Shown one piece after another: positions 5,466 through 32,761 of a DNA stretch of 64,000 bases (the stretch's first letter is position 1; every line of letters starts with the position of its first letter). Both the position numbers and the translations under genes were made by a program. Below the pieces are notes generated by a model, which saw only the letters and a program-made list of their open reading frames with translations, ran no database searches and was not told where the DNA came from. The stretch comes from a virus, in IMG/VR virus record IMGVR_UViG_3300045988_055134, positions 1,364 through 65,363 of that record; one strand, 5' to 3'.

Positions 5466-5489
5466 TATACATTTGAAAGGAAGTAAAGT

Positions 5490-6602: not shown

Positions 6603-6612
6603 GTAAATATAA

Positions 6613-6647
6613 ACCCTGTCATTATTATATAATGACAGGGTTTTTTG
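6613..6647 (+). terminator. rho-independent terminator (CCCTGTCATTA...TAATGACAGGG then a T-run)
   Basis: Perfect inverted repeat followed by TTTTTT. Confidence 0.7.
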
Positions 6648-6776
6648 TTGCATATATGTGGGCATTGGACCGCGCTCGGTGCAAACGCAAAGTAGTTTTA
6701 GAATTTTTCGGGCCAAATATGGGAAAATGACTTGCTACAATTTTTATATCTATGTGAGAGGAGGGATTTATAAGAA

Positions 6777-6989
6777 TGGCTGATTTAGTAGTTCTTAAAG
6801 GTTCTTTTGCCAATCTCGATAGCATCCCGATTAAAGAGGGCTAGTTGATTTTCACGACAGATGAGGGTAATCGTCTGATTTTCTTGGATACTGATAACAG
6901 TACTCGAGTATAGATCACTTCTCCCGCGATTGAGGATACTGATACAATCATTTTGGACGCCGGCGGCGCTCCTATAACAATAGGAGGTT
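6777..6989 (+). CDS. small protein with two in-frame TAG codons; its N-terminal motif is shared with the neighbouring fibre-like genes
   Basis: GAGGAGGG RBS; ATG 6777; ends TAA 6987. Confidence 0.5.
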
Positions 6990-6996
6990 AAGGCAT

Positions 6997-7509
6997 ATGG
7001 CTGTTAAAACAATTTAGATTGTCTTAAAGATGCGCCGTGATAATGATTACAATTACGAGAAGGTAAAGGATAGTTTTATTCCCGAAAAGGGCGAAATTTG
7101 TTTAGTAGATACTGCTAAGCAAGGCCTTTGCGTGATTGTTGGCGATGGCGTGTCAACTTATGGAAGTCTTGAGTATGAGAATACTATCTTCCAACGCGCT
7201 TATTTCATTGGTGAAAAGATTTTCAAAGATGTTGATGGCACTCAAGAAATCACTCCTAATGAAAATAAAATTTATATTGATGCCAATAACTCAAATGCTT
7301 TATATTATTATAATGGTGTTGAGTTTGTTGGCATTGGACCGGGTTCGCTTCCCGTAGCGTCTGCGGAAACCGCTGGTATTATGAAACTTTACACTGGTAG
7401 TGGAGAGAATACTGATGGCACCATGACGCAAAAAGCGATTACAGATGTACTGAACACCAAAATTGGCGTTACAGTTAATTTAGAAGATGAAATAGCTATC
7501 TTCAAATAA
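6997..7509 (+). CDS. tail-fibre/structural-like protein with in-frame TAG at codon 7
   Basis: TAGGAGG RBS; ATG 6997 is in frame with ORF 7030-7509. Confidence 0.6.
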
Positions 7510-7532
7510 TCTTATAGGAAGAAATTAATTTT

Positions 7533-8741
7533 ATGGCTATTTTTGATCCTAAGAATGTTCCTGTTATTTCCAAACTAACTATTGGAGATCAGACTTATTA
7601 TCTAAAGGACGCTGAAGTTCGTGAGCTGCTTAAGACTCTTGGTACTGCTGCTCAGAAAGATGTTGCCGCGGGTGTTGGCGCTGATGAGCAGGGTCTTGTA
7701 ACTGGTGCTCAGGTTCAGGCTGCCATTGCTAGCTCTATGCACTTCCGCGGTGTTGTTACTTCTTTTGATGACATTACCGATCCTGCCGCAGGTGATGTAA
7801 TTATCATTGGTGTTAAGGAGTACGTGTATGGCGGTGAGCCTGCTACATGGCATGAGCTTGGCGATGAGAGCATTTATGCTTTAAAGACTGTTACTATTGG
7901 TACTCAGAATCTGTCTGCTAATATTAACCTTGATACCCTTGCTGCGGATATGGGTCTTGGCAAGCTGGCTAAGAAGGATTCCGCTACTGGTACCGTAGCT
8001 GGCCAGACTATTACCGGTCTGAAGGCTAAGGGCAATGCCGCGGGTTCTATTGAGGTTGGTCTTACTCAGACTGCAACTGATGCTACTCTAACCAAGAGTG
8101 ATTATACTCCAGCAGGTACTGTAACCGGTACGACAACTGCTGCTGGTACTGTTAGTATTGCTAAGGATGCTGAAAACGGTGTTCAAATTTCCGGTTCTGT
8201 GTCTGCACCAAACGTAACCGTAACCCCAGCTAAGGATAGTATTAAAAAGGTAACTTCCGTTGGTTCTTTGCCGTCTAAGGCTAAGGATACTTTTGTTACC
8301 AACGGCGATGATACTTTTACTCAAGGTTCTCAGGCTTCTTGGAGTGCTTCTGTTGATGATGCCACTGAGACTTTAAGTTTTAGCTTTACCGCGAATGTAC
8401 TTCCTACTTTTGTGCAGGGCGCAAAGGCTTCTTATACAGAAGGTGCATTTGATGCAGGTACTCTTCCAGAACTTGCTGAAACCGCAACCGATGTTGTAAC
8501 TGGTATTACTAGCGCGACTGCTACGGCTCCAGTATTTACTGGCGATAAATTTGCAGCTACCTTTGCTGGTAATGAAGTCGATGTTAATGCTACCTTCGCA
8601 GGCACTAAGACTCAGGTTGTTACCGGCGTATCTTACGATAAGGCTGGCGTAGACACTGACAAGACCAAGTTCACTGGCGCTGCTGTTGAGCTTGATGTTG
8701 ACGACGTAGTAGTTACCGCTAAGGAAGTTACTGTTAAGTAA
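7533..8741 (+). CDS. Ala/Thr/Gly/Val-rich structural (fibre-like) protein
   Basis: Low-complexity TGT/TAT repeats; high GC; N-terminal motif ..YYLKDAEVREL. Confidence 0.6.
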   Translation: MAIFDPKNVPVISKLTIGDQTYYLKDAEVRELLKTLGTAAQKDVAAGVGADEQGLVTGAQVQAAIASSMHFRGVVTSFDDITDPAAGDVIIIGVKEYVYGGEPATWHELGDESIYALKTVTIGTQNLSANINLDTLAADMGLGKLAKKDSATGTVAGQTITGLKAKGNAAGSIEVGLTQTATDATLTKSDYTPAGTVTGTTTAAGTVSIAKDAENGVQISGSVSAPNVTVTPAKDSIKKVTSVGSLPSKAKDTFVTNGDDTFTQGSQASWSASVDDATETLSFSFTANVLPTFVQGAKASYTEGAFDAGTLPELAETATDVVTGITSATATAPVFTGDKFAATFAGNEVDVNATFAGTKTQVVTGVSYDKAGVDTDKTKFTGAAVELDVDDVVVTAKEVTVK

Positions 8742-8794
8742 TTTAGCACTAGCGAGTTAAATGCTCATTTATGAAAATAAAGGATGGTGAGTAA

Positions 8795-9265
8795 ATGGCG
8801 AATAAGTACATTTCCCATGTAGAACTCGGCAGTACCATTTACTCCCTTAAAGATGAAGAAGCAAGAGCCGCGGTCAATGCATTGCAAACTGCGGTTTCTT
8901 CTTCTCTAGTCTTTAAAGGTGTCGTCTCTAGTGCTGCCGATCTTACTGGTCTAAAGAACTACAAAATTGGTTGGACATATAAAGCTAATGCTTCTTTCGA
9001 GATTGCTTCTTTGGGCAAACTTGAAGTAGGCGATATGATTATATGTATCGGCGATTATAGCTCTAGCTATAAAGCAAGTGACTGGACAGTAGTTCAAAAC
9101 AATGTAGATACTATGACTGGAGCTTCCTCTACGGCCGGAGGCACGAGAGGTTTAGTACCAGCGCCTCAAGCAGGAGATACTGATAAGTATCTTAAAGGTG
9201 ATGGATCGTGGGGTTCTCCTTCTGCGTCTGTTGCTTGGGGCAATTTCTCTGATTTAATAGGATAA
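8795..9265 (+). CDS. structural/fibre-like protein paralogue
   Basis: N-terminus ...IYSLKDEEARAAV resembles the 7533 and 18180 genes. Confidence 0.55.
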   Translation: MANKYISHVELGSTIYSLKDEEARAAVNALQTAVSSSLVFKGVVSSAADLTGLKNYKIGWTYKANASFEIASLGKLEVGDMIICIGDYSSSYKASDWTVVQNNVDTMTGASSTAGGTRGLVPAPQAGDTDKYLKGDGSWGSPSASVAWGNFSDLIG

Positions 9266-9295
9266 AGCCATTAGGCTTTATCCTATTTTTTTATT
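9259..9295 (+). terminator. rho-independent terminator
   Basis: GGATAAAGCC/GGCTTTATCC followed by a T-run. Confidence 0.7.
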
Positions 9296-9377
9296 TTTCT
9301 CAAAAATTATTGTATTATATGTATATAAACAAAAGGAAATATGATAAGGATCGACACTAAGCTAGCTTAGATGATCT

Positions 9378-9406
9378 TTGACATATATGAAATTTTATTA
9401 TATAAT
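9378..9406 (+). promoter_or_regulatory. sigma70-type promoter: TTGACA, 17-nt spacer, TATAAT
   Basis: Exact consensus hexamers with 17-nt spacing. Confidence 0.65.
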
Positions 9407-9439
9407 ATATATAGTAAATGAGAAAAGGAGTTACAAGTT

Positions 9440-9772
9440 ATGTTTCCGATTGAGAAGTACAAGTTTTATACCAATGGTTCTCGTGTAATTGTGGTTTCCA
9501 CCTACGCAGGCAGGGTAGTGCGTGGTGTTGCAGTATGCCATGCAGATGACGAGTTTTCACTGGAGAAGGGTAAGCAGCTTGCTGCTCTGCGATGCGCAGA
9601 AAAGATTGCTACTAAGCGTATGAAGCGCGCAACGGCGAAGAAACTTGAGGCTAGACGCATTTATGATGATGCGGTTGCTCATTATTCTGATATGGCTGAT
9701 TATGAGAATGAGGCTGCGCATGAACTGCATGAAGTTATGGAAGCTAAACGAGAGTTTCTTGAAACTCTATAA
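9440..9772 (+). CDS. hypothetical protein
   Basis: AAAGGAG RBS. Confidence 0.55.
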   Translation: MFPIEKYKFYTNGSRVIVVSTYAGRVVRGVAVCHADDEFSLEKGKQLAALRCAEKIATKRMKRATAKKLEARRIYDDAVAHYSDMADYENEAAHELHEVMEAKREFLETL

Positions 9773-9809
9773 GTTGCTATCCTGAGCAAGATATAAAACT
9801 GCTCTATTT

Positions 9810-9903
9810 GGAGGATTAACCCTAATTGGTAAGGGAGCGGTCCTGAAAACCGCTAGTACCCGTGAACAACGGCGTAAGAGTTCAAGTCTCTTATCCTCCG
9901 CCA
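9810..9903 (+). tRNA. tRNA-Ser (apparent anticodon UGA, unusual C33), class II, CCA encoded
   Basis: Acceptor GGAGGAT/ATCCTCC, anticodon stem GCGGT/ACCGC, loop CCTGAAA, 22-nt variable arm. Confidence 0.7.
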
Positions 9904-9960
9904 ACAAATTAGACGAGAAATAGGAGGCAGAATAATGGACGCTTTAGAATTTGCAAAAGA

Positions 9961-10272
9961 ATGTGCAGGAGCCACGAGAGATGTCTCGACTGTCCGCTTA
10001 AAGGAGTCAAATGTAACGAGATTGATGAAAGTTACAGTAAAATCATTGCTATCGTTGAACAATGGTCGAAGGATCATCCACGCAAAACGCGACAGAGTGT
10101 ATTTCTAGAGCAGTGGCCTGATGCCGTCCTTGATAGGTTTGGAGTAATGCAGCTTTGTCCGATGAATGTTTCTGCTGCTCACAGAAGAAGAGACAATAGC
10201 GAAAAGTGTAAGAATCCAGAAAAACTGTGTATAGACTGCCGCCGCGAATTCTGGATGCAGGAAGTAGAATAA
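9961..10272 (+). CDS. Cys-rich (CxxC) hypothetical protein
   Basis: ORF of 103 aa; weak RBS; there is an alternative ATG at 9935 in another frame. Confidence 0.4.
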   Translation: MCRSHERCLDCPLKGVKCNEIDESYSKIIAIVEQWSKDHPRKTRQSVFLEQWPDAVLDRFGVMQLCPMNVSAAHRRRDNSEKCKNPEKLCIDCRREFWMQEVE

Positions 10273-10351
10273 TGAGAGATAAAAATCTCATAAATGCGGA
10301 AACTACACGCTGACTCATGAGACTGTAACGGATGCCGATGGAGGAGGAAAT

Positions 10352-10765
10352 GTGATGGAAAATGTTAATTGCCTGCGTTGCCGCTTTAGGCATAAGGATA
10401 ACGGAAACTGTACTGCGGTCGGTGGATTCTGCACGGCGGTCCCGGCGGCGCACTGCCCGCTACTGCGGGAATATTTGGACGGAGGTCAGTTAATGGGTAA
10501 ATACATCACGAAAGAAGCCGCGCTGAATACAATCTTCAGCGAACCGCCGGAAGCGCATTATCCGAGTTGGTACGCAGAGAGGATTAAGGCGCTGCCAGCT
10601 GCCGATGTTGCGCCGGTGGCGCATGGGTGGTGGAACGCAGACGAAACTTGCTCATTGTGCGGAGAGAAGTCAACGGAAGGACTGGACGCAACGAAGTGGA
10701 ACTATTGGCTCCCTAACTACTGCCCCAACTGTGGTGCAAAGATGGGCGGAAAGGATGGCTGCTAA
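10352..10765 (+). CDS. Cys-rich hypothetical protein in a GC-rich segment
   Basis: GAGGAGGAAATG RBS. Confidence 0.55.
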   Translation: MMENVNCLRCRFRHKDNGNCTAVGGFCTAVPAAHCPLLREYLDGGQLMGKYITKEAALNTIFSEPPEAHYPSWYAERIKALPAADVAPVAHGWWNADETCSLCGEKSTEGLDATKWNYWLPNYCPNCGAKMGGKDGC

Positions 10766-10827
10766 GCAGTCCTGGATTATTTACAATAAAAGCAAGAAAT
10801 GAGAAATTTGCAATAAAATAAATATTA

Positions 10828-10836
10828 TGATATAAT
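10828..10836 (+). promoter_or_regulatory. extended -10 promoter element TGATATAAT
   Basis: Member of the repeated promoter family. Confidence 0.5.
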
Positions 10837-10857
10837 ATGAAAGTGAGGGATTTAATA

Positions 10858-10950
10858 ATGCTGAATAAAGTAAGACACTTCTTCAAGGGTGTTTATCAGG
10901 CTGAGATGGATTATCAAAAGAAGAATAATGTTCGCTTCTTCTTGCGATAA
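10858..10950 (+). CDS. 30-aa peptide
   Basis: GAGGGA RBS directly downstream of a promoter element. Confidence 0.3.
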   Translation: MLNKVRHFFKGVYQAEMDYQKKNNVRFFLR

Positions 10951-10969
10951 TTCTCTTCTCTTCTTTTAA

Positions 10970-11051
10970 GGGCGAGTGGTGGAATGGTAGACACGGCAGA
11001 CTCAAAATCTGCTGCTTACGCGTGAGGGTTCGAATCCCTCCTCGCCTACCA
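10970..11051 (+). tRNA. tRNA-Leu (anticodon CAA), class II, CCA encoded
   Basis: Acceptor GGGCGAG/CTCGCCT, anticodon stem GCAGA/TCTGC, loop CTCAAAA. Confidence 0.8.
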
Positions 11052-11078
11052 TTAACTTACAGAAAGGGTTATAAAACA

Positions 11079-11330
11079 ATGAAAAAGAAGATTGTGGCAC
11101 TGGTTGCAGCTGCGGGTTTAGCATTCTGCTTAACTGGATGCGGAAACCATCAGATTTTAGATACTAATTTCTATTTTAATAGAGCAATTATCTCGATACC
11201 AGATGGCACAGTAGTTGATGGTATAGTTCAGTCTTGGAAAGACTTTGACGATGGTGATACTATTCAAATCAAGATTGATGATGTAACATATCTTACACAT
11301 ATTTCCAATGTAGTCTTAATGACCGATTAA
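11079..11330 (+). CDS. small lipoprotein (signal peptide plus lipobox LTGC)
   Basis: MKKKIVALVAAAGLAFCLTGCG. Confidence 0.65.
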   Translation: MKKKIVALVAAAGLAFCLTGCGNHQILDTNFYFNRAIISIPDGTVVDGIVQSWKDFDDGDTIQIKIDDVTYLTHISNVVLMTD

Positions 11331-11350
11331 GCGGCTTTTGTCGCTCTTAT

Positions 11351-11437
11351 GCGAACGTAGTCAAGTGGATTAAGACCCCGGCCTGCAAAGCTGTGTGACC
11401 CGTAAGGGCGTGAGTTCGAATCTCACCGTTCGCTCCA
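11351..11437 (+). tRNA. class II (long variable arm) tRNA with apparent anticodon GCA (Cys codons); anticodon stem is weak
   Basis: Acceptor GCGAACG/CGTTCGC, loop CTGCAAA, variable arm with CCC-GTAA-GGG hairpin, T-arm GTGAG-TTCGAAT-CTCAC, CCA. Confidence 0.5.
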
Positions 11438-18856: not shown

Positions 18857-19255
18857 ATGAATAAGAACTTAAACAGCTACTTTAATTTAAGAGAACTTGT
18901 AAAAGACTATGGAGGTATTGAGAACTTTAGATTCTTTGGGCATTTGGACAAACCCGCAGGGTTATTTTTCTCTAGCTATTCCGATGATTGGGTAGAGTGT
19001 AAGTTGGAAGATGACCATTCTTATGGTGATCTTTACACGCTTGAAGGTGGCTATAAAGTAAAGGTTGTTCCTGCGAGAGATATGCGATATATTGGTCGCC
19101 ATTTCTATCAGCACGATCTACTTTCTATGATTAAAAATGGTTGTTTCATTCTTAAGACTGAAGATGGCGATCGTATTGTTGAACGAGAGGGAATTGAACC
19201 TTTGTGCGGAAGTGCCTATCTCTATCATCGTTGGCAAGAAGTTGTTAAGGAGTGA
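18857..19255 (+). CDS. hypothetical protein
   Basis: AGTGAGGGAAAG RBS downstream of a promoter element. Confidence 0.5.
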   Translation: MNKNLNSYFNLRELVKDYGGIENFRFFGHLDKPAGLFFSSYSDDWVECKLEDDHSYGDLYTLEGGYKVKVVPARDMRYIGRHFYQHDLLSMIKNGCFILKTEDGDRIVEREGIEPLCGSAYLYHRWQEVVKE

Positions 19256-19656
19256 TTATTATTCGTATCTGGCACCAAAAACTTATTCCCTATCTTGACC
19301 GTCAGCGTCTCTTAGGTCAGCATCGAGAATGCGCGGCTCTAAGAGGAAAAGGTTGGGGCAAGAAGCACGCAACTGTAGACTACGCTTTTACACATGACCC
19401 TGCTCTACTTGTCGCTTATCATTATCTGATTATGGACGAGATGGAGAAGCGTGGTTACCATCCAGATAAGATTTGGAAGAATCCGAACTGGCGAGGTGCT
19501 ACGCTAGGGGAAGATACATGGATTTCTGATTCCCGATATAAGGAAATTTATGAAACCGCAAAGCAGGGTAATATGATTTATCCTGAACATGATGACAGCT
19601 ATCTGCAAGAGTGTATTCGCATTTTGCATGATAAAGGAATTGACATTATGCTTTAA
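19252..19656 (+). CDS. denV: pyrimidine-dimer DNA glycosylase (T4 endonuclease V family)
   Basis: RIW..L..QRLLGQHRE motif; GTGA coupling to the upstream gene. Confidence 0.7.
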   Translation: MIIIRIWHQKLIPYLDRQRLLGQHRECAALRGKGWGKKHATVDYAFTHDPALLVAYHYLIMDEMEKRGYHPDKIWKNPNWRGATLGEDTWISDSRYKEIYETAKQGNMIYPEHDDSYLQECIRILHDKGIDIML

Positions 19657-20191: not shown

Positions 20192-21457
20192 ATGGCATAT
20201 TTTGGTTTGATAACTCGACTGCAGAACTGCCGCAAGGACGAGAACTCTGATCGTCTGTATCTCGCCGATTGCTTTAATGAAGGCGTCATCATCGGTCCTG
20301 ACATGAAGACCGGCGACCCTGTTCTGTATCTGCCTACCGACGGCGAGATTGACCATTGGTTTGGTGATAAATTCAAACTCTTCCGCAAGAATGAGGATGG
20401 TACTGAGCAGGGTGGTTATCTGGAGAATAATGGCCATGTGCGGGCGATTAAGCTCCGTGGCAACCAGAGTTCTGGTATTGTCATTTCTCTTCCTCATGTC
20501 TATGAGGTATTTGGCGATCAGCATTGGGAGGATGGCGACAAGGTAAATACCGTCAATGATAAAGAGTTCTGCCGCAAGTATATCCCGAAGCGTAAATATC
20601 CGCAGACTGCGGCCAAGACTTCTTATAAGGGTCGTAAGGCAGAGGGTATTGTATATCCGGATTTTGCAATGCACATTGATACTGCGCAGCTTGCTTACAA
20701 TCTTGATGCGTTCCGTCCGGGTGATCAGTTGAACATGACTCTCAAGATGCACGGTACTTCTCAGCGTTCTATGAATACTGTTGCGGAGCTGCCGAATGGC
20801 TTCTTTCGTCGTCTGTTTCATATGAAGAAGCGTACTAAGCAGGCTTATGTACTTGGTACTCGTCGTTGTGTAGTTTCTGAGGATGATGGTGGCTACTACG
20901 GTGATAATAAGTTTCGACTGCCGCATCACGAGGCGCTGAAGCCGTTCCTTGAGCCGGGCATGGAAGTCTTTTACGAGGTCGTAGGTTACTATGGTCTTGG
21001 CGATGGAGATACTATCATGCCGATTGGCGATAACTCGAAGCTGAAAGATAAGGCTTTCCAGAAGCAGTTCGGCAAGCGTTCTATTTTCTCTTACGGGTGC
21101 GAGCCGGGTGAGTCTCATATGTGGATTTACCGCATCACTTCTGAGAACGGCGAGCGCGAGTGGACTCCTGACGAGATTACTGCATGGTGCGATAAGCATG
21201 GCTTTAATCGAGTACCAGTGATTGACAACTTTGAGTTTACTACCGTAGATGATCTGTTGAAGCGCATCAATGATTACTTCGAGGATCTTGCAGACCCGAT
21301 TGGCAAAACTCATGTCAAGGAGGGCGTTGTAATCCGTATTGTAAATCGTCGTTCTTTCACTGCTTTCAAGTCTAAGACCTACGAGTTTAAGGTACTTGAA
21401 GGTATCATTAAGGAGACTGAAACCGCTCCAGATATGGAGGAAGCGCAGGAGGTATGA
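20192..21457 (+). CDS. RNA ligase, Rnl2/Rnl5-like (motif I KMHGTS) with N-terminal extension
   Basis: KxHGT nucleotidyltransferase motif. Confidence 0.6.
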   Translation: MAYFGLITRLQNCRKDENSDRLYLADCFNEGVIIGPDMKTGDPVLYLPTDGEIDHWFGDKFKLFRKNEDGTEQGGYLENNGHVRAIKLRGNQSSGIVISLPHVYEVFGDQHWEDGDKVNTVNDKEFCRKYIPKRKYPQTAAKTSYKGRKAEGIVYPDFAMHIDTAQLAYNLDAFRPGDQLNMTLKMHGTSQRSMNTVAELPNGFFRRLFHMKKRTKQAYVLGTRRCVVSEDDGGYYGDNKFRLPHHEALKPFLEPGMEVFYEVVGYYGLGDGDTIMPIGDNSKLKDKAFQKQFGKRSIFSYGCEPGESHMWIYRITSENGEREWTPDEITAWCDKHGFNRVPVIDNFEFTTVDDLLKRINDYFEDLADPIGKTHVKEGVVIRIVNRRSFTAFKSKTYEFKVLEGIIKETETAPDMEEAQEV

Positions 21458-22012: not shown

Positions 22013-22047
22013 ATGAGAGCCTTGTTCAAAGGCTCTCTTTTATTTTT
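22013..22047 (+). terminator. rho-independent terminator
   Basis: GAGAGCCTT/AAGGCTCTC followed by a T-run. Confidence 0.7.
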
Positions 22048-22057: not shown

Positions 22058-22095
22058 ATGATATAATTAAAGAATAAGGAAAGGAGTTTTCCCCT

Positions 22096-22608
22096 ATGAA
22101 GAAAATTCTTATTGTAATTGATATGCAGAATGATTTTGTGACCGGCGCACTCGGTTCTGAAGCTGCTCAGACTGCGACAAAGAACATTGCCGATCATATT
22201 AAGGACTACGATATGGTTGTCTTTACTCGTGACACTCACAATGATGATTATCTCAATACTCTTGAAGGCAAGTATCTGCCGGTTCAGCATTGTGTGAAGA
22301 ATACTGAGGGTTGGGATATTGTTCCCGAATTAACAGACGCGGCTTCTGCAATTAAGAACTTTTATGTTATTGATAAGGATACTTTTGGTACCTTTATGTG
22401 GAAGAATATGCCGGTAAAGGATACTGCACAGATTGAGATTTGCGGTGTTTGCACTGACATTTGTGTTGTATCGAATGCACTGATCCTTCGAGCACTCTAT
22501 CCCAATAGAGAAATTGTATGCCATAAGGATTGGTGCGCCGGTACTACCAAGGAAGCGCATGAAGCAGCTCTGGCAGTAATGAAGTCTTGCCAGATTAAAA
22601 TTGTGTAA
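22096..22608 (+). CDS. isochorismatase-family hydrolase (nicotinamidase PncA-like)
   Basis: ILIVIDMQNDF; catalytic Cys in CGVCTDICV. Confidence 0.75.
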   Translation: MKKILIVIDMQNDFVTGALGSEAAQTATKNIADHIKDYDMVVFTRDTHNDDYLNTLEGKYLPVQHCVKNTEGWDIVPELTDAASAIKNFYVIDKDTFGTFMWKNMPVKDTAQIEICGVCTDICVVSNALILRALYPNREIVCHKDWCAGTTKEAHEAALAVMKSCQIKIV

Positions 22609-22620
22609 GGAGAATATATT

Positions 22621-23433
22621 ATGCTTTCTGTTAAAACTTTCTCTTACCCCGGAATTTGGCTGCCAGTTATTCAGAGTCATTTTCCAGATGGGACTTTACG
22701 TTTGGAACCTCCGGAGTTGAGTAATACTTTTGCTTCCGCAATACGGTGGGACTATGAAAACGATGCAGAATTATTCTCGCTTATTTGTTTAAAGAACCAC
22801 TATTGCAATGATAATATCTCGCTTTATATGCCCTACTGTCCGCACGCCCGCATGGACAGAGTAAAGAGTTCTAATGATGTTTTTACTCTCAAGAGTTTTG
22901 CAGGCATTATCAACTCGCTTAATTTCTCTAAGGTAGTTGTCTATGATGCACACAGTAATGTAAGTCTAGCACTTATTGATCGTGTTGAAAATCGTGATAA
23001 CACTCCTTTTGTTGAACGTGCAATCAACAAAATCAGCGATCCAGATCTTGTTATGTATTATCCTGATGAGGGAGCAATGAAGAGATACTCTGAACAGTTT
23101 AATCGTCCTTATAGTTTCGGCATGAAGAAGCGAGATTGGGCGACTGGTAACATTAAAGGCATTGATATTATCAACAAGGAAGCTGTAAGAGGCAAGAATA
23201 TTCTTATTGTTGATGATATTTGTTCGCGCGGCGGCACCTTCTTCCATTCTGCTAAGGCACTTAAAGCTGAGGGTGCGAAGAATATTTATCTCTTTATCAC
23301 TCATTGCGAAACCACTATCATGGAAGGAGAGCTAATCAAGAGTGGACTGATTAAGCACATCTTTACGACCAACTCTCTTGCTAGTAATTTCCCAACTAAT
23401 CTCATCACTGTCGACCCTATTATTCTTTCATAA
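22621..23433 (+). CDS. ribose-phosphate pyrophosphokinase (Prs)-family enzyme; candidate ADPR-PP synthetase (Adps-like)
   Basis: PRPP-binding motif ILIVDDICSRGGT and overall Prs-like layout. Confidence 0.7.
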   Translation: MLSVKTFSYPGIWLPVIQSHFPDGTLRLEPPELSNTFASAIRWDYENDAELFSLICLKNHYCNDNISLYMPYCPHARMDRVKSSNDVFTLKSFAGIINSLNFSKVVVYDAHSNVSLALIDRVENRDNTPFVERAINKISDPDLVMYYPDEGAMKRYSEQFNRPYSFGMKKRDWATGNIKGIDIINKEAVRGKNILIVDDICSRGGTFFHSAKALKAEGAKNIYLFITHCETTIMEGELIKSGLIKHIFTTNSLASNFPTNLITVDPIILS

Positions 23434-23448
23434 AGGAGTTTTGCATAA

Positions 23449-25173
23449 ATGTTTAATCCTCTGTTAATGATTGATTTCTATAAGAGCACTCACCATGAGC
23501 AGTATCCCGCGGGATTAACTAAGATGGTTAGTTACTATACTCCTCGTATGAGTAGGCTGCAGGGAGTTGATAAAGTTACTCTCTTTGGTCTGCAAGCCTT
23601 TATTAAAGAATATCTTATTGCAGGCTTCAACGATAGTTTCTTTAATCGCTCGGAGGATGAGGTAGTGACCGAGTATGAACGTGTGCTCAATGCCACGCTC
23701 GGTAAAGGTGCTTTCCAGTCTGATAAGATTAGAGAACTGCATCGACTCGGTTATTTGCCGCTTGAAATCTCCGCTGTCCCGGAAGGTACTAGAACTGCGA
23801 TTGGAGTTCCACAGATTGAGATCACTAATACCCATCCAAACTTTGTTTGGCTTGTAAATACCATTGAAACTCTGCTGTCTGCAACTATGTGGCATACGCA
23901 GGTATCCGCGGAAGTCGGCTATCGGTATCGTCAGATTGTGCAGCAGTATCACGATATTAGTTGTGATGATGATGTTTCTGTCGCTCGACTGCTTGGTGAT
24001 TTCTCTATGCGCGGTCAGCAGTCTGCAGAATCCGCGATTAAGAGTTCTGCGGGTTGGTGTCTTTCTTTCTTGAATACTGCTACTGTACCCGCAATTATGT
24101 GGCTTGAGAAGAACTATAATTGTGATTGTGCTACTGAGCCTGTTGCTTATGGCGCAATCTCTACAGAGCACAGTGTTATGTGTTCTAATTACGCGGTTGA
24201 TGGTGATGAGATCACTCATATCCGCAGACTTCTAACAGAGATTTATCCTCACCACAATTTCTCTATGGTATCTGATAGTTATGACTATTGGAGACTCGTA
24301 GATAAGATCCTTCCGCAGTTGAAAGACGAAATTATGGCGCATGATGGTTGTCTTTCTATTCGTGGTGACAGCGGCGATCCTGTGGAGATTATCGCAGGAA
24401 AAGAAATCTTCTATCTCGACGAGAAGGAATGGAAGAACCTAAAAGATGACCCCAGCGAATTCGTTGCTGAGTTCTTTGAACGAGACTTAAAGGAGGACAC
24501 TCAGCAGATTTTCTCTTACAATGGAGAGTATGCTCTTGCTGACATCACAGTCGAATGGACTAATGAGCGTGGGGCTTGGACTGATTGCAAATATTGGTTC
24601 ATTGAAGGCTATAACGTCAAACTGACTGAAAACTATGAGCTTACTTCCGAAGATAAAGGAACCGTCTGGCGCCTGTGGGATATTTTCGGTGGCACCATCA
24701 ATAGCAAGGGTTATAAGGTTCTTGATCCCCACATTAAAGCTATCTATGGTGATAGTATTACTCCTCAGCGTTGCGCTCGTATTTATCATCGCCTTGTGAA
24801 TAATGGATTTGCCATTAACAACACTTCACTTGGCGTGGGTTCGTTCTCGTTCATGTGTCTTGAGGAAGATGGTAAGTTTAATCCTTATACGAGAGATACT
24901 TTCGGCATTGCGGTAAAAGCTACTTACGCAGAAGATGCAAATGGCAAGCCTATTATGATCTATAAGCAGCCTAAAGCGCTTAGCTGGAAGAAGTCTCAAA
25001 AGGGTTGCTGTCGAGTTTGTCTTGATGGTCAGAGTTATGAAGATGAGCTGACTTGGAATGAACACCTTGGTGAAGACAACCTGCTTCAACCCATTTTCCG
25101 TAATGGCACTATGATTAAGGAGGATACATTGCATGATATTAGAGCAAGACTCTACCGAGAAGGTTTTATGTGA
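23449..25173 (+). CDS. nicotinamide phosphoribosyltransferase family (NAMPT/NadV/Namat-like)
   Basis: N-terminus NPLLMIDFYKSTHHEQYP resembles NAMPT. Confidence 0.8.
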   Translation: MFNPLLMIDFYKSTHHEQYPAGLTKMVSYYTPRMSRLQGVDKVTLFGLQAFIKEYLIAGFNDSFFNRSEDEVVTEYERVLNATLGKGAFQSDKIRELHRLGYLPLEISAVPEGTRTAIGVPQIEITNTHPNFVWLVNTIETLLSATMWHTQVSAEVGYRYRQIVQQYHDISCDDDVSVARLLGDFSMRGQQSAESAIKSSAGWCLSFLNTATVPAIMWLEKNYNCDCATEPVAYGAISTEHSVMCSNYAVDGDEITHIRRLLTEIYPHHNFSMVSDSYDYWRLVDKILPQLKDEIMAHDGCLSIRGDSGDPVEIIAGKEIFYLDEKEWKNLKDDPSEFVAEFFERDLKEDTQQIFSYNGEYALADITVEWTNERGAWTDCKYWFIEGYNVKLTENYELTSEDKGTVWRLWDIFGGTINSKGYKVLDPHIKAIYGDSITPQRCARIYHRLVNNGFAINNTSLGVGSFSFMCLEEDGKFNPYTRDTFGIAVKATYAEDANGKPIMIYKQPKALSWKKSQKGCCRVCLDGQSYEDELTWNEHLGEDNLLQPIFRNGTMIKEDTLHDIRARLYREGFM

Positions 25174-25594
25174 TCCATATATCTACACTCATAATGCCGC
25201 TGAGAGACTATACAATGAATATAAGAAGTATGGCAGTATAATCATAGCATTTGACTTTGATTATACTGTCCATAATTTCAAAGATGAACAATGGCGCTAT
25301 GATGGTGTAATTAACTTGCTGCGGGCATGGCAACCATATGCCAAGCTCGTTGTATTTACAGCTTCCGCGGAAGAGCGTTATCCATATATTGAAAAATATT
25401 TACGCGATAATGATATTCCATTTGGCTATATCAATGAAGATATTCTTCCACCAGAAAAGCATACCCCAGCGCGAAAAATTTATTACAATATTTTGCTCGA
25501 TGATCGCGCTGGGCTTGGTAATGCGTTCGCAATATTGAGAGAAGTATACAATAGACTTGAAGCAGAAGGAGAACTTAAAACATGGAGAAAGTAA
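25133..25594 (+). CDS. HAD-superfamily phosphatase/nucleotidase-like
   Basis: DxDxT motif FDFDYTV; LDDR. Confidence 0.5.
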   Translation: MILEQDSTEKVLCDPYIYTHNAAERLYNEYKKYGSIIIAFDFDYTVHNFKDEQWRYDGVINLLRAWQPYAKLVVFTASAEERYPYIEKYLRDNDIPFGYINEDILPPEKHTPARKIYYNILLDDRAGLGNAFAILREVYNRLEAEGELKTWRK

Positions 25595-26316
25595 TTCCTA
25601 AGATTTTAGATTGGACTAAGAACTATTTTGTGCAGAATGGCGCAGATTGCAAGGCAATCATCGGTATTTCTGGCGGTAAAGATAGCACTGTAACTGCGGC
25701 GCTTCTCGTTAAAGCGCTCGGAAAAGACAGGGTAATTGGTGTAAAGATGCCGCAGGGCAATCAGCATGACATCGACATTGCCAATAAAGTAATTGATTAT
25801 CTCGGTATTCGGAGTTACGAAATCAATATTGGCGATGTCTGTGAATCCTTATATCATGCTATTGATGAGGGGTATGATTTTGATAGTACGGTTAAAAACA
25901 ATCCCCAAGTTACTTCTAACTCTCCTGCCCGCGTCCGCATGACAGTGCTTTATGCTATTGCTGCGCTTGAACATGGTAGAGTAGCAAATACCTGCAACAA
26001 GAGCGAGGATTTTATTGGTTACTCTACTAAGTTTGGCGACTCCGCAGGTGATTTTTCTCTTCTGTCGAACCTTACAGTAAAGGAAGTTCTTGCTATTGGT
26101 AGAGAACTGGGCTTGCCGGAAGAGTTTATTAGCAAAGCACCGGAAGATGGTCTTAGTGGAAAAACTGACGAAGATAATCTTGGTTTTACCTACAAAGAGC
26201 TAGATGATTTTCTTGTATTTGGCAATGTACCTGACTACGACACCTTTGCCAATATTATGGAACGTCACCACCGTAATCTCCATAAGGTAGAACCGATGCC
26301 TACTTTTCCGTGGTAA
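25582..26316 (+). CDS. nadE: NH3-dependent NAD+ synthetase
   Basis: PP-loop GISGGKDST. Confidence 0.8.
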   Translation: MEKVIPKILDWTKNYFVQNGADCKAIIGISGGKDSTVTAALLVKALGKDRVIGVKMPQGNQHDIDIANKVIDYLGIRSYEINIGDVCESLYHAIDEGYDFDSTVKNNPQVTSNSPARVRMTVLYAIAALEHGRVANTCNKSEDFIGYSTKFGDSAGDFSLLSNLTVKEVLAIGRELGLPEEFISKAPEDGLSGKTDEDNLGFTYKELDDFLVFGNVPDYDTFANIMERHHRNLHKVEPMPTFPW

Positions 26317-26325
26317 ACATAGATT

Positions 26326-26356
26326 TTAAGGGAGCTTAAAGCTCCCTTTATTTTTT
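26326..26356 (+). terminator. rho-independent terminator
   Basis: AAGGGAGCTT/AAGCTCCCTT followed by a T-run. Confidence 0.7.
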
Positions 26357-26485: not shown

Positions 26486-27394
26486 ATGATCCCTGGACTC
26501 TATAAGATCTTTGACCACTGGCACGCTGAAGGCACGGTGTATATCTACTCTGATCCCCACTTCAATGATGAAGAGATTGTAGCAGGTGTGCCGGAACGAC
26601 CCTCCGCAGAAGAACAGGTTAAACTTATCAATAGTAAAGTTGGTAAGAAGGATACGCTCATTATTCTTGGAGATTGCGGCGATCCAGCTATGTGCGCCAA
26701 ACTGCGTGGTTACAAGGTACTTATTATGGGAAACCATGACGCCGGTCGCAGTAACTATGAGCGCAAAAAGATTTCTCGTAAGTTTCCCAAAGAAGTCTTT
26801 CAGAAATCTGAGGCTCTTGATGAAATGAAACGCGTCTATCCCGGTTGTCAGTATTTTATTACCGAAGGATATGACTTCCACTCTCCCTTTGAGTATTGGG
26901 AAGTCTTTGCGGACAATAATCTCTTTGACGAGATCTATGAAGGGCCTCTCATGATTGGTGAGAAACTTATTCTATCGCATGAACCGCTTCCTATGATGCC
27001 TTGGGTATTCAACATTCATGGTCATATCCATGATCGTTGTCACAAAGATGATGACAGACATCTGAATGTTTGCTCTGATGTAATTAACTACACGCCAGTC
27101 AATCTGAACAGGTTAATGAAGAGAGGATTAACGGCAAAAATCCAATCTGTGCATAGACAGACCATTGATGTAGCTACGAAAAGAGCGAGAAAAAGAAAAC
27201 TGAAGAACAAAGAATGTTATGATTGTAAACATTTTTACCGTGAATGGTTCCGCGGCCATGCTGCTTGTAGATGTCATAAGCATGGTTCTTTAGATTGCGA
27301 CCAGCCTAAGGAACATAGACCTGATACCGCTGCGAAACATTGCAAAGATTACTGCTACGAAAAGGGGCATCAAAAACAGAAATGTTATTTTTAA
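26486..27394 (+). CDS. calcineurin-like metallophosphoesterase with C-terminal Cys-rich tail
   Basis: DPHFND...GDCGD...GNHD motifs. Confidence 0.7.
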   Translation: MIPGLYKIFDHWHAEGTVYIYSDPHFNDEEIVAGVPERPSAEEQVKLINSKVGKKDTLIILGDCGDPAMCAKLRGYKVLIMGNHDAGRSNYERKKISRKFPKEVFQKSEALDEMKRVYPGCQYFITEGYDFHSPFEYWEVFADNNLFDEIYEGPLMIGEKLILSHEPLPMMPWVFNIHGHIHDRCHKDDDRHLNVCSDVINYTPVNLNRLMKRGLTAKIQSVHRQTIDVATKRARKRKLKNKECYDCKHFYREWFRGHAACRCHKHGSLDCDQPKEHRPDTAAKHCKDYCYEKGHQKQKCYF

Positions 27395-27812: not shown

Positions 27813-27962
27813 TGAAGCTACGTAAGCTATCTAAGACTCTCGAAAACATGGAACGAGATCTCGCCAAAATGGACGATGAAACTTTCTTCGCTCTTCTTGG
27901 GACAAGTATTGAGGAACTTAAACAAAAAGCGAAAGAAATGGAAGGAGCAAACAAAGAATGAC
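27813..27962 (+). CDS. 49-aa hypothetical protein
   Basis: Short ORF coupled to the next gene. Confidence 0.35.
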
Positions 27963-28800
27963 TGATAAACTTGGTATGCGCATGAAAGAGTTTTATGAAA
28001 CGGTTCCTAAGGCTAGATTGATGCGCAGAACTCCTGTCGCAATCCGCATTGATGGCAAGGTTTTCCACACTTTCACTCGTGGTTTTAACAAGCCTTTCGA
28101 TCATATTCTTGGAACTGCTATACAAGAAACTATGAGATACCTGTGTCAAAATATTCAAGGTTGTGTACTTGGATATACCCAGAGTGATGAAATTACTCTG
28201 ATCCTTGTAGATTATAAACGACTAAATAGCTCCGCATGGTTTGATTATGAGGTTCAGAAAATGTGCTCTGTCGCCGCATCTATGGCGACTATGGCTTTCA
28301 ATAAAGCCTTCCATAAGGCAGTTGAAGACGCAGATTTCTTCTGGAAAACTAGTCTAACTCCTCAAAGCGTTGAAATCCAGCAAGGGCATCAAAAGTACAT
28401 GGAAATTCTGCGGGCCGCCAGCTCTAAAGGCGCCATGTTTGATGCACGTTGCTTCAATATCCCGAGAGAAGAAGTTACTAACCTTATCTATTGGCGCCAG
28501 TTAGACGCAACCCGCAATTCTATCCAGATGGCAGGCCAGGCTAATTTCTCTCATAAAGAACTTCAAGGTAAATCTTGTATCCAAATCAAGAAAATGCTCT
28601 CTGATATTGGTATTGAATGGGACGATTATCCCATTTCTTATCAGCGCGGCTCTTGTTGTATTAAGACTTATATCCAAGATGTCGCTCCCGATGGAATTGA
28701 GCATATTCGTTCTGAATGGATTATTGATAAAAACATCCCGCTGTTTATCGGAGAGGGACGTGAATATATCGAATCTCTAATCCAGAGCGAGGAGGAATAA
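27958..28800 (+). CDS. Thg1-like protein (tRNA-His guanylyltransferase family, 3'-5' nucleotide addition)
   Basis: VAIRIDGKVFHTFTRGFNKPFD...YTQSDEITL signature. Confidence 0.75.
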   Translation: MTDKLGMRMKEFYETVPKARLMRRTPVAIRIDGKVFHTFTRGFNKPFDHILGTAIQETMRYLCQNIQGCVLGYTQSDEITLILVDYKRLNSSAWFDYEVQKMCSVAASMATMAFNKAFHKAVEDADFFWKTSLTPQSVEIQQGHQKYMEILRAASSKGAMFDARCFNIPREEVTNLIYWRQLDATRNSIQMAGQANFSHKELQGKSCIQIKKMLSDIGIEWDDYPISYQRGSCCIKTYIQDVAPDGIEHIRSEWIIDKNIPLFIGEGREYIESLIQSEEE

Positions 28801-29758: not shown

Positions 29759-29959
29759 ATGAGATGGCTATGTTTCTTTGGTGTCCATGAGTTAGAAGAC
29801 AAAGATCGTTTTTCTAATTTGCTTGATGACACGTGGATAAAGAAATGCAAATACTGTAACCGTTATACGGTATATTGTCATGGTATAAAAACAAATATGT
29901 CGCAGAAAGCAGCTAAACGCCTTATAAGAAAGGTAAATAGCATTGCAACGGGAGAATGA
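29759..29959 (+). CDS. Cys-containing small protein
   Basis: GGGAGGG RBS. Confidence 0.4.
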   Translation: MRWLCFFGVHELEDKDRFSNLLDDTWIKKCKYCNRYTVYCHGIKTNMSQKAAKRLIRKVNSIATGE

Positions 29960-30041
29960 TTGCAAATACTGTAGTGCACCAAATACAAGATGTATTCATT
30001 GGCAAGGTATCTTTTGTGAGCTAGATATGGAGGTACGAAGA

Positions 30042-30560
30042 ATGACGACTGAACTTAAAGTAATGGTAGGTGTACCCGGTAGTGGTAAATCTACTTGGGT
30101 CGAGCAAGAGATTGCTCGACTGGAAGATGATCACCGCACCACTTGTGTAGTTTCCAGAGATTTCGTGCGGAAGTCCCTCTTAAACGATCACGATGGCTAC
30201 TTCGATAAGGAAACCGAAGTATTCAATGAGTTCGTGCGGCAGATCAATGAAGCCATGGAGCTTGGTATTGATGTTGTGTTTGCTGATGCAACGCATATCA
30301 GTCCTGCTTCTCGAGCCAAATTGCTTGGTCGGTTGGCAGCAGACCCGCACACTAAGCTGACCTTTGAGGTTATTGATGTTCCTCTTGATGTTGCTATTAA
30401 GCGCAATGCACAGCGTAGTGGTTTCGCGAGAGTGCCGGATTCTGCAATCAAGAACATGAAGAAAGGATTTTCTATCCCGAGTGCAAAGGAGTTCCCTAAG
30501 ACTAAGTGGGGCTTTTCGGATATTAAAATCAATGTACATGGATACGAGAGAAAAGATTGA
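30042..30560 (+). CDS. polynucleotide 5'-kinase (T4 Pnk kinase-domain-like)
   Basis: GVPGSGKSTW...DVP..VAIKRN..R motifs parallel T4 Pnk; GGAGG RBS. Confidence 0.75.
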   Translation: MTTELKVMVGVPGSGKSTWVEQEIARLEDDHRTTCVVSRDFVRKSLLNDHDGYFDKETEVFNEFVRQINEAMELGIDVVFADATHISPASRAKLLGRLAADPHTKLTFEVIDVPLDVAIKRNAQRSGFARVPDSAIKNMKKGFSIPSAKEFPKTKWGFSDIKINVHGYERKD

Positions 30561-30656: not shown

Positions 30657-31226
30657 GTGATAACACTGAATATTTATGTTTCTAGCGACTACCACCTGAA
30701 CCATGATAAAGAATTTATCTGGAAGGCTCGCGGTTTTGATAGTGTCGAAGAGATGAATGAAGCCATTATCACACGAAATAATGAGCTTGTTTCTCCAGAT
30801 GATCCTTTGATTATCTGCGGCGACCTAATGCTTGGTGGAAGCGAGAACCTTGAAAAAGGTATTGAAATGCTAAACCGCATGAATGGTAAGAAACTCATTG
30901 TTGGCGGTAATCACGATACTCGCGCTAGACGCGAAGCATATCTTAAAGCAAATATTCCGGTATTTGATGCTTATGCTTTCACTTATCGCAAGTATCATTT
31001 TTACGCATCGCATTATCCAACTTTGACCGGCAATCTTGAAAAAGAGTCGCTCAAAAAGACGGTATGCAATCTTTTTGGGCATACCCATCAGACTACTAAC
31101 TTCTACAATGAAATTCCTTTTATCTACCACGTAGGTGTTGATTCACATAATTGCTATCCCGTTCATCTCGATACTGTAATCGAAGATATGGAACAGCAGG
31201 CAAAGAAATGTATTGAAATGCTTTAA
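30657..31226 (+). CDS. calcineurin-like metallophosphoesterase (candidate 2',3'-phosphatase or phosphodiesterase)
   Basis: SDYHLNHD...GDLM...GNHD...GHTH motifs. Confidence 0.7.
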   Translation: MITLNIYVSSDYHLNHDKEFIWKARGFDSVEEMNEAIITRNNELVSPDDPLIICGDLMLGGSENLEKGIEMLNRMNGKKLIVGGNHDTRARREAYLKANIPVFDAYAFTYRKYHFYASHYPTLTGNLEKESLKKTVCNLFGHTHQTTNFYNEIPFIYHVGVDSHNCYPVHLDTVIEDMEQQAKKCIEML

Positions 31227-31273: not shown

Positions 31274-32761
31274 ATGGAAATTCTAACTACTATCCTTCCT
31301 TTTGTCCCCGTAGCGATTATCGTAATTGCGATTATCGTATTTCTTGTTTCGAGCTATGTAAAGGCTCCGCCGGATGTGGCATATATTATCTCTGGTATGC
31401 ACAAGAAACCGCGAGTACTTGCTGGTAAGGCTGGTATTAAAATTCCTTTCCTTGAGCGAATGGATAAGTTGGCACTTGGCGCTATTCAGATCGACGTAAA
31501 GACAGGATCTGCCGTTCCCACCGCGGAATACATCAATGTACGCGTTGACTCCACTGTTTCTGTACGAGTAGGACAGACTGATGAAATGATTGCTCTTGCT
31601 GCACAGAACTTTCTGAATGTATCCCGTGCGGAGATTGCTCAGAAGATTAACGATCTCCTTGAAGGTAATATCCGTGAGATTGTAGGTCAGATGAAGCTGA
31701 CCGAGATGGTTGGCGACCGCAAGGCATTCTCCGAAAAGGTACAGGAAAATGCAGTGCCTGATCTGGCTCGTTTCGGCCTGGAACTGGTTTCCTTTAATGT
31801 TCAGAACTTCTCTGATGACAATGATGTTATCACCAACCTTGGTATTGATAATGTCGAGCAGATTCGCAAGGATGCTGCTATTGCTAAGTCTAATGCCCAG
31901 CGTGAGATTGCAGTCGCTGAAGCAGAAAATGCTAAGGCTTCTAATGACGCTCGTGTAAAGGCTGAGGAAGAGATTGCTAAGCGCAATAATAGTCTTGCTA
32001 TCCAGAAGGCTCAGCTGAAGCAGGAATCCGATACTAAGCAGGCTCAGGCTAATGCTGCTATGGAAATCGAGTCTGAGAACCAGCGCAAGCTGCGTGATGT
32101 TGCAGCGGCTGACGCAGATATTGCTCGTCAGGAGAAGGAAATCGACCTTAAGGAACGCGAAGTTACTATCAAGGAACGTGCTCTGGAAGCTGAGGTAAAG
32201 AAGACCGCTGAGGCTAAGAAGTATGCCGCTCAGCAGGAAGCTGATGCGCGACTCTACGCAACGCAGAAGCAGTCTGAGGCTGATCTCTATGAGCGTCAGA
32301 AGACCGCAGAGGCTGAGCGTTTCGAAGCAGAGCAGCGAGCTGAAGCACAGCGTGCAACCGCGGAAGCTATTCGTATTCAGGGTGAGGCTGAAGCCGCAGC
32401 TGCAAAGGCTCGTGGTGAAGCAGAGGCAGCTGCTATTCAGGCAAAGGCTGAGGCAGAAGCTGAAGGTCTTATGAAGAAGGCAGAAGCCATGAAACAGTAT
32501 GGTGAAGCCGCTAAGATGGATATGCAGATGGAAGCCCTCAAGATGTACTTCCAGCAGCTCCCGGCTATCGCAGAAGCAACTGGTCAGGCGTATACCAATG
32601 TTGATAAGATTGTGATGTTTGGCGACAACACAAGCAAGCTCTCTGGAGATATTATCAACAATGTCGCTCAGATTTCTGAGGGACTGAGTGAGTCTCTCGG
32701 CATTGATGTAAAGGCTATGCTGGCTGGCTTCCTTGGTGGAAAGATCGCTGATAAGAACTAA
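31274..32761 (+). CDS. SPFH/band-7 (flotillin/YqiK-like) membrane protein with long Ala/Glu coiled coil
   Basis: N-terminal TM, SPFH region, EA-rich repeats. Confidence 0.7.
   Translation: MEILTTILPFVPVAIIVIAIIVFLVSSYVKAPPDVAYIISGMHKKPRVLAGKAGIKIPFLERMDKLALGAIQIDVKTGSAVPTAEYINVRVDSTVSVRVGQTDEMIALAAQNFLNVSRAEIAQKINDLLEGNIREIVGQMKLTEMVGDRKAFSEKVQENAVPDLARFGLELVSFNVQNFSDDNDVITNLGIDNVEQIRKDAAIAKSNAQREIAVAEAENAKASNDARVKAEEEIAKRNNSLAIQKAQLKQESDTKQAQANAAMEIESENQRKLRDVAAADADIARQEKEIDLKEREVTIKERALEAEVKKTAEAKKYAAQQEADARLYATQKQSEADLYERQKTAEAERFEAEQRAEAQRATAEAIRIQGEAEAAAAKARGEAEAAAIQAKAEAEAEGLMKKAEAMKQYGEAAKMDMQMEALKMYFQQLPAIAEATGQAYTNVDKIVMFGDNTSKLSGDIINNVAQISEGLSESLGIDVKAMLAGFLGGKIADKN

Follow-up and report, generated by a model that had tools for sequence, protein, structure and literature searches.

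The depletion of nicotinamide adenine dinucleotide (NAD+) is among the commonest antiviral strategies of bacteria, and the NAD+ reconstitution pathway NARP1 is the main known answer of phages. NARP1 combines Adps, an ADP-ribose pyrophosphokinase, with the transferase Namat; it was validated experimentally for Bacillus phage SPβL1, and 97% of Adps-clade genes adjoin a Namat homologue (Osterman et al. 2024, bioRxiv 10.1101/2024.02.11.579819). In NARP1-AP, the pair is joined by the Macro-domain protein Adpp, whose function has been shown and which lets NARP1 overcome the aRES defence (bioRxiv 10.64898/2026.01.28.702374). NARP2, of the Vibrio phage KVP40 type, is composed of Nampt and Nmnat, and NARP3 is an unrelated PnuC/NadR system. 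Bacterial homologues of NARP1, with an aspartate in the nicotinamide pocket of the transferase (Asp type), have already been reported. Bacteria also possess Preiss-Handler operons regulated by NrtR (pncA-pncB-nadD-nadE), and a 2008 study pointed to NrtR-linked "prs-nadV" operons as unexplained (PMC2330246).

Here, we analysed a window of 64,000 nucleotides (positions 1,364 to 65,363 of the IMG/VR virus record IMGVR_UViG_3300045988_055134) in which an operon of five genes contains, as in NARP1, an Adps-clade gene followed directly by one of the Namat clade. Because Adps adjoins a Namat-clade transferase, we are highly confident that this region is a NARP1-type operon, with a nicotinamidase, a phosphatase of the HAD superfamily and NadE as accessories. 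The best overall explanation, which we favour with some reserve, is that the operon rebuilds NAD+ from the products of defence through a deamidated intermediate, nicotinic acid adenine dinucleotide (NaAD); its presumed role would be in anti-defence. The five genes are the following:

22096..22608, + strand, predicted nicotinamidase (PncA-like, isochorismatase fold); open reading frame (ORF) of 170 aa; Isochorismatase PF00857, E 5.6e-25
22621..23433, + strand, Adps (ADP-ribose pyrophosphokinase, Prs-like); ORF of 270 aa; Pribosyl_synth and Pribosyltran; phrog_619, E 1.5e-68
23449..25173, + strand, Namat-clade transferase of the Ala-type subclade; ORF of 574 aa; NAMPT_N and NAPRTase; phrog_448, E 1.7e-158
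25133..25594, + strand, predicted cap-less HAD-superfamily phosphatase; ORF of 153 aa; conserved motifs and predicted fold
25582..26316, + strand, NadE, NH3-dependent NAD+ synthetase, single domain; ORF of 244 aa; NAD_synthase, E 3.5e-48

Identity of the core pair

The sequence-only reading of this DNA had placed five ORFs on the + strand, with a Prs-family gene directly upstream of a NAMPT-family gene, and had proposed that these two are NARP1-like rather than a true phosphoribosyl pyrophosphate (PRPP) synthetase followed by a classic NadV. We recovered the five ORFs at exactly the same coordinates, with 15 nt between the two genes. Both proposed identities were borne out, the Prs-like protein lying in the Adps clade and the transferase in the Namat clade, so that the pair is of NARP1 type. 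The extension of this pair by a nicotinamidase, a HAD phosphatase and NadE was likewise supported by domain matches, motifs and a predicted fold.

We placed the Prs-like protein by tree topology, by identities and by indel motifs. Its score against the NCBIfam ribose-phosphate diphosphokinase TIGR01251 is 96.5 bits, below the cut-off of 113 bits, and it falls far under every NCBIfam equivalog cut-off. It shares 37-39% identity with SPβL1 Adps vs 21-25% with the Prs proteins of E. coli, B. subtilis and human, and in a neighbour-joining tree it is nested within the phage Adps clade, far from these three references. It also displays derived traits of Adps: ARMDR replaces ARQDR/K, the QIQGFF segment is lost and the PP loop carries DDIC. 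Altogether, neither the family score nor the RQDR/K loop motif nor the HxxQIQGFF ATP-site motif of PRPP synthetases is found in this protein, which is predicted to use ADP-ribose (ADPR) together with ATP to form ADP-ribose pyrophosphate (ADPR-PP) and AMP.

The transferase scores 400 bits against the solved Namat structures 9W5X and 9W5W vs 146 against Xanthomonas Nampt and about 120 against human NAMPT, and it is 45-46% identical to SPβL1 Namat. In the tree it groups with Namat and is split from the human, ValKK3 (KVP40-like), Mx1 and B23 Nampt proteins in 100/100 bootstraps. A structure-based comparison, also suggested by the sequence-only reading, points to the same family: the AlphaFold model, with a predicted local distance difference test score (pLDDT) of 85, matches Namat best, 9W5X and 9W5W being the top Foldseek matches. 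The protein contains one large insertion:

24403..24654, + strand, inserted alpha/beta subdomain of the transferase, about 84 aa (residues 319-402), from alignments and predicted structure

Its block-mean pLDDT is 91-97, except for 73 at residues 371-380. Locus L009 has this insert, and so do Bacillus phages such as Kirov, but SPβL1 Namat, loci L001 and L010 and many sister loci lack it.

The NCBIfam match of the transferase, "nicotinate phosphoribosyltransferase" (NF006629), was taken to name the family, with no weight as evidence of substrate; JGI labels an identical protein as nicotinic acid phosphoribosyltransferase. We also observed that H. ducreyi NadV (PDB 9KE8/9KEO) is far closer to SPβL1 Namat than to human or Xanthomonas Nampt.

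The nicotinamide pocket

In SPβL1 Namat, D215 hydrogen-bonds nicotinamide, and the D215A substitution lowers NAD+ formation from nicotinamide 8.1-fold (Lan et al., PMC12774641). The human equivalent, Asp219, defines the substrate specificity of NAMPT (PMC7096376). We aligned the window transferase with human NAMPT (sequence identical to 2GVG) and SPβL1 Namat, and found that this aspartate is replaced by alanine (A211): the window protein reads NTATVPA where human NAMPT and SPβL1 Namat have GTDT. To this may be added that human D219S reportedly gains activity on nicotinic acid, a finding attributed to Khan et al. in 2006.

This replacement is not peculiar to one protein. Scans of IMG/VR, GenBank phages and GTDB genomes, of which we took the best 80 matches each, gave 247 Namat-family loci. 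Position 211 is occupied by Ala or Ser in all 159 loci of the subclade that contains the window transferase (Ala/Ser type). This subclade is monophyletic in 100/100 bootstraps and includes, on a deep branch, a protein of 41% identity that carries Ser at the nicotinamide-binding position (L085:7001-8767). The Asp/Glu-type Namats were monophyletic in just 37/100 bootstraps, and we therefore make no claim on them as a clade. The Adps proteins of Ala/Ser-type loci were not recovered as strictly monophyletic in the neighbour-joining tree either, that of L087 grouping with that of L085. The motif NTAT is also found in 119/119 readable sequences among the 120 database homologues listed, one having no readable motif. 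Transferase homologues are abundant in metagenomes, with at least 8000 candidates, and the cluster of the window protein itself holds 1684 sequences.

We then mapped the residues reported to contact NAD+ in Namat, and several adjacent ones, over 84 Ala/Ser-type, 82 Asp/Glu-type and four Nampt sequences. Near the nicotinamide site, the subclade shows D215 to A (83/84, with Ser in one), G213 to N, A242 to S and P307 to G. Only one further contact residue is changed throughout the subclade, Y396 of the adenine clamp, which becomes cysteine. The contacts F189, R192, R306, D308, G360, D361, G390, T398, R399 and D400 are conserved, as are S190, S391 and F392, which separate Namat from Nampt; the window protein thus retains S465/F466 where Nampt has Gly-Gly. 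In the Namat structure paper, there is no mention of nicotinate, nicotinic acid or NaAD (PMC12774641).

NadE and nicotinamidase as constant partners

The composition of the 247 loci follows the pocket residue. NadE lies within 5 kb of the transferase in 149/159 Ala/Ser-type loci vs 0/88 Asp/Glu-type loci, and many of the ten Ala/Ser-type loci that lack it are short or truncated contigs. Nicotinamidase (Iso) is found in 73/84 viral Ala/Ser-type loci vs 0/82 viral Asp/Glu-type loci. Gene order varies within the subclade: the Ser-type operon L085 reads Iso>Adps>transferase>NadE, and divergent Clostridium isolates (GTATIPA motif, 41-54% identity) have the same four genes in the order Adps>Iso>transferase>NadE. 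In a census of same-strand neighbours covering 244 loci, the only families with a known relation to NAD or ADPR were Adps, NadE, Iso, Macro, NrtR and HAD. PncB, NadD and NMNAT were not recognised among the recurrent neighbours of these 244 loci, other recurrent clusters being unannotated. Neither PncB nor NadD was found in the window operon with Pfam and NCBIfam, and a Pfam scan of 28 window ORFs gave no cytidylyltransferase/NMNAT match, the genome measuring about 146 kb, of which the window covers 64 kb.

The closest solved relative of the nicotinamidase is the P. horikoshii pyrazinamidase/nicotinamidase 1ILW (E 2.4e-15). The catalytic residues D9/K94/C123 and the metal site D46/H48/H65 align to the P. 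horikoshii PncA, and these residues are kept in 72-73 of 73 operon-linked homologues. The protein does not reach the NCBIfam equivalog cut-off for E. coli PncA. It is predicted to convert nicotinamide into nicotinate and NH3. As for NadE, it scores 163 bits against TIGR00552 (cut-off 63.65), carries the SGGKDS motif and has no glutaminase domain; its predicted reaction is NaAD + NH3 + ATP to NAD+.

The phosphatase slot

The product of the fourth gene has no Pfam or NCBIfam match and no meaningful sequence match in the PDB, and was identified through structure prediction. The model (pLDDT 89.8) shows a Rossmannoid HAD fold with the motifs DxDxT, S/T, K and DD. Among 68 aligned homologues, D43, K115, D123 and D124 are invariant, while D41 and T45 are kept in at least 90%. 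We found 88 homologues in the database, one of which has a precomputed Pfam domain. The PHROG name of this family, "phosphoheptose isomerase", was rejected on the basis of the HAD fold and motifs.

In the close relatives L002-L008, as in the window, the HAD gene follows the transferase and precedes NadE, while in L001 and L009-L012 the same slot holds a Macro-domain gene (PF01661), which the window operon lacks. Of the 247 loci, 66 have Macro and 34 have HAD, and none has both. In cultured-phage homologues, depositors annotated the Macro genes as Poa1p-like ADP-ribose 1''-phosphate (Appr-1''-p) phosphatase. The window operon thus resembles NARP1-AP in adding an operon-encoded phosphatase to NARP1, and differs from it in that this phosphatase is a predicted cap-less HAD fold, non-homologous to Macro. 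We regard it as an evenly balanced possibility that the HAD protein does the work of Adpp, converting ADPR-1''-phosphate into ADPR; other phosphorylated forms of ADPR or pyridine nucleotides are possible substrates. In the first case, phages would have answered ADPR-phosphorylating defences twice, independently, and the HAD family is found in cultured Bacillus phages too.

The HAD family is not restricted to the Ala/Ser type. Eleven Asp-type operons have a HAD gene positioned between Adps and Namat, and we observed homologues within canonical NARP1 operons of the Asp type, in phages both cultured and uncultured (L171, L088, L092, L098, L138, L143, L149 and L164). One of them, gp65 of Bacillus phage DIGNKC (L171:7100-7510), is annotated as "hydrolase"; these homologues bear that name or none.

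A bacterial counterpart next to NrtR

On the chromosome of Clostridium sartagoforme (L236:5643-10126), we found Adps, nicotinamidase, an Ala-type transferase and NadE, followed by the regulator NrtR, and flanked by ordinary chromosomal, non-phage genes. NrtR adjoins the module in 52/75 Ala-type loci from genomes vs 0/83 Ala/Ser-type viral loci. ADP-ribose is the effector of NrtR and releases it from DNA (PMC2330246), which fits a pathway that consumes ADPR. The phosphatase shows the reverse distribution, with 66/83 viral Ala/Ser-type loci vs 2/52 NrtR-linked bacterial loci. The bacterial module adjoining NrtR also suggests that phages captured a host recycling operon.

A proposed route through NaAD

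From the gene content and the pocket, we propose the following sequence of reactions. First, the HAD protein would trim phosphorylated ADP-ribose, most likely ADPR-1''-phosphate produced by aRES-type defences, to ADPR, which Adps would then convert into ADPR-PP. The nicotinamidase would turn the released nicotinamide into nicotinate and ammonia. The Ala-type transferase would join nicotinate and ADPR-PP into NaAD and pyrophosphate directly, dispensing with nicotinic acid mononucleotide (NaMN), PncB and NadD. Finally, NadE would amidate NaAD to NAD+.

In its simplest form, this would be a Preiss-Handler-like pathway in which Adps and the transferase replace PncB and NadD; it would be complete within the operon, and ammonia would balance. 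As in the NrtR-regulated Preiss-Handler operons, the first enzyme is PncA and the last NadE, and the bacterial counterpart adjoins NrtR; the difference lies in the Adps and Namat-clade transferase found in place of PncB and NadD, which implies a one-step synthesis of NaAD. With regard to canonical NARP1, the window operon differs by the Asp to Ala change and its pocket neighbours, by a nine-residue insertion in the adenine clamp and by the 84-aa subdomain, and also by its constant partners. The accessory genes probably change the chemistry to a nicotinate route, and the HAD gene takes the place of the Macro phosphatase gene, two points that go beyond the sequence-only reading.

The nicotinate/NaAD route specifically has, in our view, slightly better than an even chance of being correct. 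The wider proposal, which could be called "deamido-NARP1", is that a nicotinate:ADPR-PP transferase makes NaAD in one step, serving housekeeping recycling of ADPR under NrtR in gut Clostridia and, once captured by phages, counter-defence with Macro or HAD added for phosphorylated ADPR; we give it an even chance. In the literature searched, one-step formation of NaAD from nicotinate and ADPR-PP is undescribed, no paper naming Adps and Namat also names NadE, ADPR-PP, nicotinic acid and phage are combined only in two known NARP papers, and the terms NARP4 and NARP5 do not occur. If the subclade truly uses nicotinate, NaAD formation from ADPR-PP would be a new reaction in NAD+ biochemistry, and it would explain why NadE and nicotinamidase travel with the transferase. 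The labels nicotinate or nicotinamide phosphoribosyltransferase, which the homologues bear in the sources, would then be wrong for Ala-type members, and a phage counter-defence would be tied to a host housekeeping operon under an ADPR-sensing regulator.

Weighing the alternatives

Several observations weigh against this route. The first concerns the adenine clamp. The selectivity-clamp helix of Namat reads GSxΦxΦxΦTRD, with adenine-stacking aromatics at positions 3 and 7 (PMC12774641). In the window protein it is disrupted (GSFSFM-CLEEDGKFNP-Y-TRD): Y396 becomes C470, and the nine inserted residues bring the spacing from GS to TRD to 15 residues vs six in canonical Namat. This spacing is 15-35 residues in all of the 120 listed database homologues. 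As the clamp is disrupted, the use of ADPR-PP is not secure. Second, H. ducreyi NadV (9KE8) reaches 568 bits against SPβL1 Namat. Its structure was deposited with nicotinamide mononucleotide (NMN) and nicotinamide (NAM), and it has GAQTYQRN-TRD in place of the Namat clamp GSFTYQYN-TRD, without the clamp residues. It is an enzyme of nicotinamide and PRPP; overall similarity to Namat is therefore no proof of ADPR-PP use. Third, P. horikoshii NadE and Francisella NadE 3FIU score equally among the closest solved relatives of the window NadE. The latter prefers NaMN, acting as an NMN synthetase, so that the window NadE may prefer either NaAD or NaMN. Fourth, the 247 loci are no random sample, and the association between pocket residue and NadE (P = 4e-56) is expressed in Fisher and hypergeometric P values that ignore phylogeny; because the Ala/Ser subclade is monophyletic, this link amounts to one or very few evolutionary events. 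Lastly, the deamidated route would be costlier, for no obvious advantage.

Among the other explanations, the one that survives best, which we nonetheless consider unlikely, is a canonical NARP1 accompanied by unrelated helpers. In that case, the transferase would make NAD+ from nicotinamide, and nicotinamidase and NadE, co-inherited from a clostridial NAD regulon, would boost the Preiss-Handler pathway of the host (PncB, NadD). The nicotinamidase would then compete with the transferase for nicotinamide. Moreover, the nicotinamide-binding Asp is replaced in 159/159 sampled subclade members, at identities down to about 40%, by a change that costs canonical Namat 8-fold when made as D215A. Neither NadE nor nicotinamidase was seen in any of the 88 Asp/Glu-type operons, and phages keep both of them and not NrtR. 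On the other hand, bacterial NAD regulons do often mix branches, as does the nrtR-pncA-pncB-nadD-nadE group of C. acetobutylicum (PMC2330246), and the module has a chromosomal counterpart adjoining NrtR. Most NAD-contact residues are conserved, and in a monophyletic subclade the association of the pocket residue may be one historical event.

Classic salvage from PRPP, of Preiss-Handler or NARP2-like type, appears improbable. It would require the Prs-like protein to supply PRPP and the transferase to form NaMN or NMN, with NadE acting on NaAD made by the host NadD or as an NMN synthetase. This is what the Pfam and NCBIfam names and the JGI label would suggest, and the altered clamp, the Namat-like character of H. 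ducreyi NadV and the resemblance of NadE to Francisella 3FIU, an NMN synthetase, are compatible with it. It conflicts with a Prs-like protein that stays under the Prs cut-off, lacks QIQGFF and is nested in the Adps clade, and with the retention of S465/F466 vs the Gly-Gly of Nampt. Moreover, the module is accompanied by ADPR-linked partners (Macro Adpp, NrtR), and the operon, the scanned window ORFs and the recurrent neighbours showed neither NMNAT nor NadD. With NARP2, the window operon does share a NAMPT-superfamily enzyme and the end product; its enzyme lies outside the Nampt clade (100/100 bootstraps), and no Nmnat was found among the 28 ORFs scanned.

Least probable of all is a purely metabolic booster, a host housekeeping ADPR-recycling operon copied by the phage for NAD+ supply irrespective of immunity: the same four-gene core is chromosomal and NrtR-linked in many Clostridia, and gut jumbo phages were reported, by annotation only, to have clusters for NAD synthesis as part of their auxiliary metabolism (PMC11662467), but ADPR is scarce in canonical NARP1 hosts unless NAD+ is cleaved (Osterman et al.), the enrichment of phosphatases in viral over NrtR-linked bacterial loci fits an arms-race add-on, and the idea concerns the purpose of the operon and not its chemistry, so that it is compatible with NAD+ reconstitution through NaAD.

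Operon boundaries

The sequence-only reading had also described the module as running from a promoter to a terminator. Strong hairpins on the + strand at both ends make this description reasonable, while the promoter is a consensus match only:

22015..22037, + strand, terminator-like hairpin that ends the upstream gene and bounds the module on its 5' side; GAGAGCCTT-GTTCA-AAGGCTCTC, then a T-run
22059..22067, + strand, candidate extended -10 promoter element TGATATAAT, read from the sequence as a consensus match
26328..26348, + strand, terminator-like hairpin at the 3' boundary of the module; AAGGGAGCT-TAA-AGCTCCCTT, then a T-run; 12 nt past the NadE stop codon

The element TGATATAAT was not listed by a consensus promoter scan, which requires a -35 box. 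A Shine-Dalgarno sequence, AAAGGAG (22080-22086), lies 9 nt ahead of the nicotinamidase ATG (22096), and AAGGAGG (25118-25124) lies upstream of the HAD start codon. From the first gene to the fifth, the intergenic distances are 12, 15, -41 and -13 nt. It is plausible that the five genes form a single transcription unit, read from this putative promoter.

Genomic context and host

The window is phage DNA: besides tRNA genes, it encodes topoisomerase II, a large DNA polymerase, PhoH and DnaB, along with an ATP-dependent DNA ligase and NrdD, the anaerobic ribonucleotide reductase. When the module was compared by megablast with 50,697 phage records, no match was obtained, and thus no close nucleotide relative. 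A transferase protein identical to that of the window was found on eight metagenomic contigs, the longest measuring 146,170 bp, and the operon belongs to a gut phage with a genome of roughly 146 kb. Its host is probably a gut anaerobe of the class Clostridia, since most related loci found in genome collections are those of Lachnospiraceae, Oscillospiraceae, Ruminococcus and Clostridium; NrdD likewise indicates an anaerobic host.

Around the NAD module, we noted genes of RNA-repair type, namely an RNA ligase, two metallophosphoesterases, a Thg1-like tRNA-His guanylyltransferase and an AAA_33 kinase; this set occupies window positions 20192-21457, 26486-27394, 27958-28800, 29943-30560 and 30657-31226. 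Such surroundings suggest a counter-defence or repair region. Fourteen tRNA genes are clustered at 93-11437, and for two of them (93-166 and 5392-5465), which have unusual anticodon loops, ARAGORN could assign no amino acid. Further along the window, a DenV-like pyrimidine dimer glycosylase (19252-19656), an SPFH/flotillin-like protein (31274-32761) and NrdD (58848-60659) were also observed.

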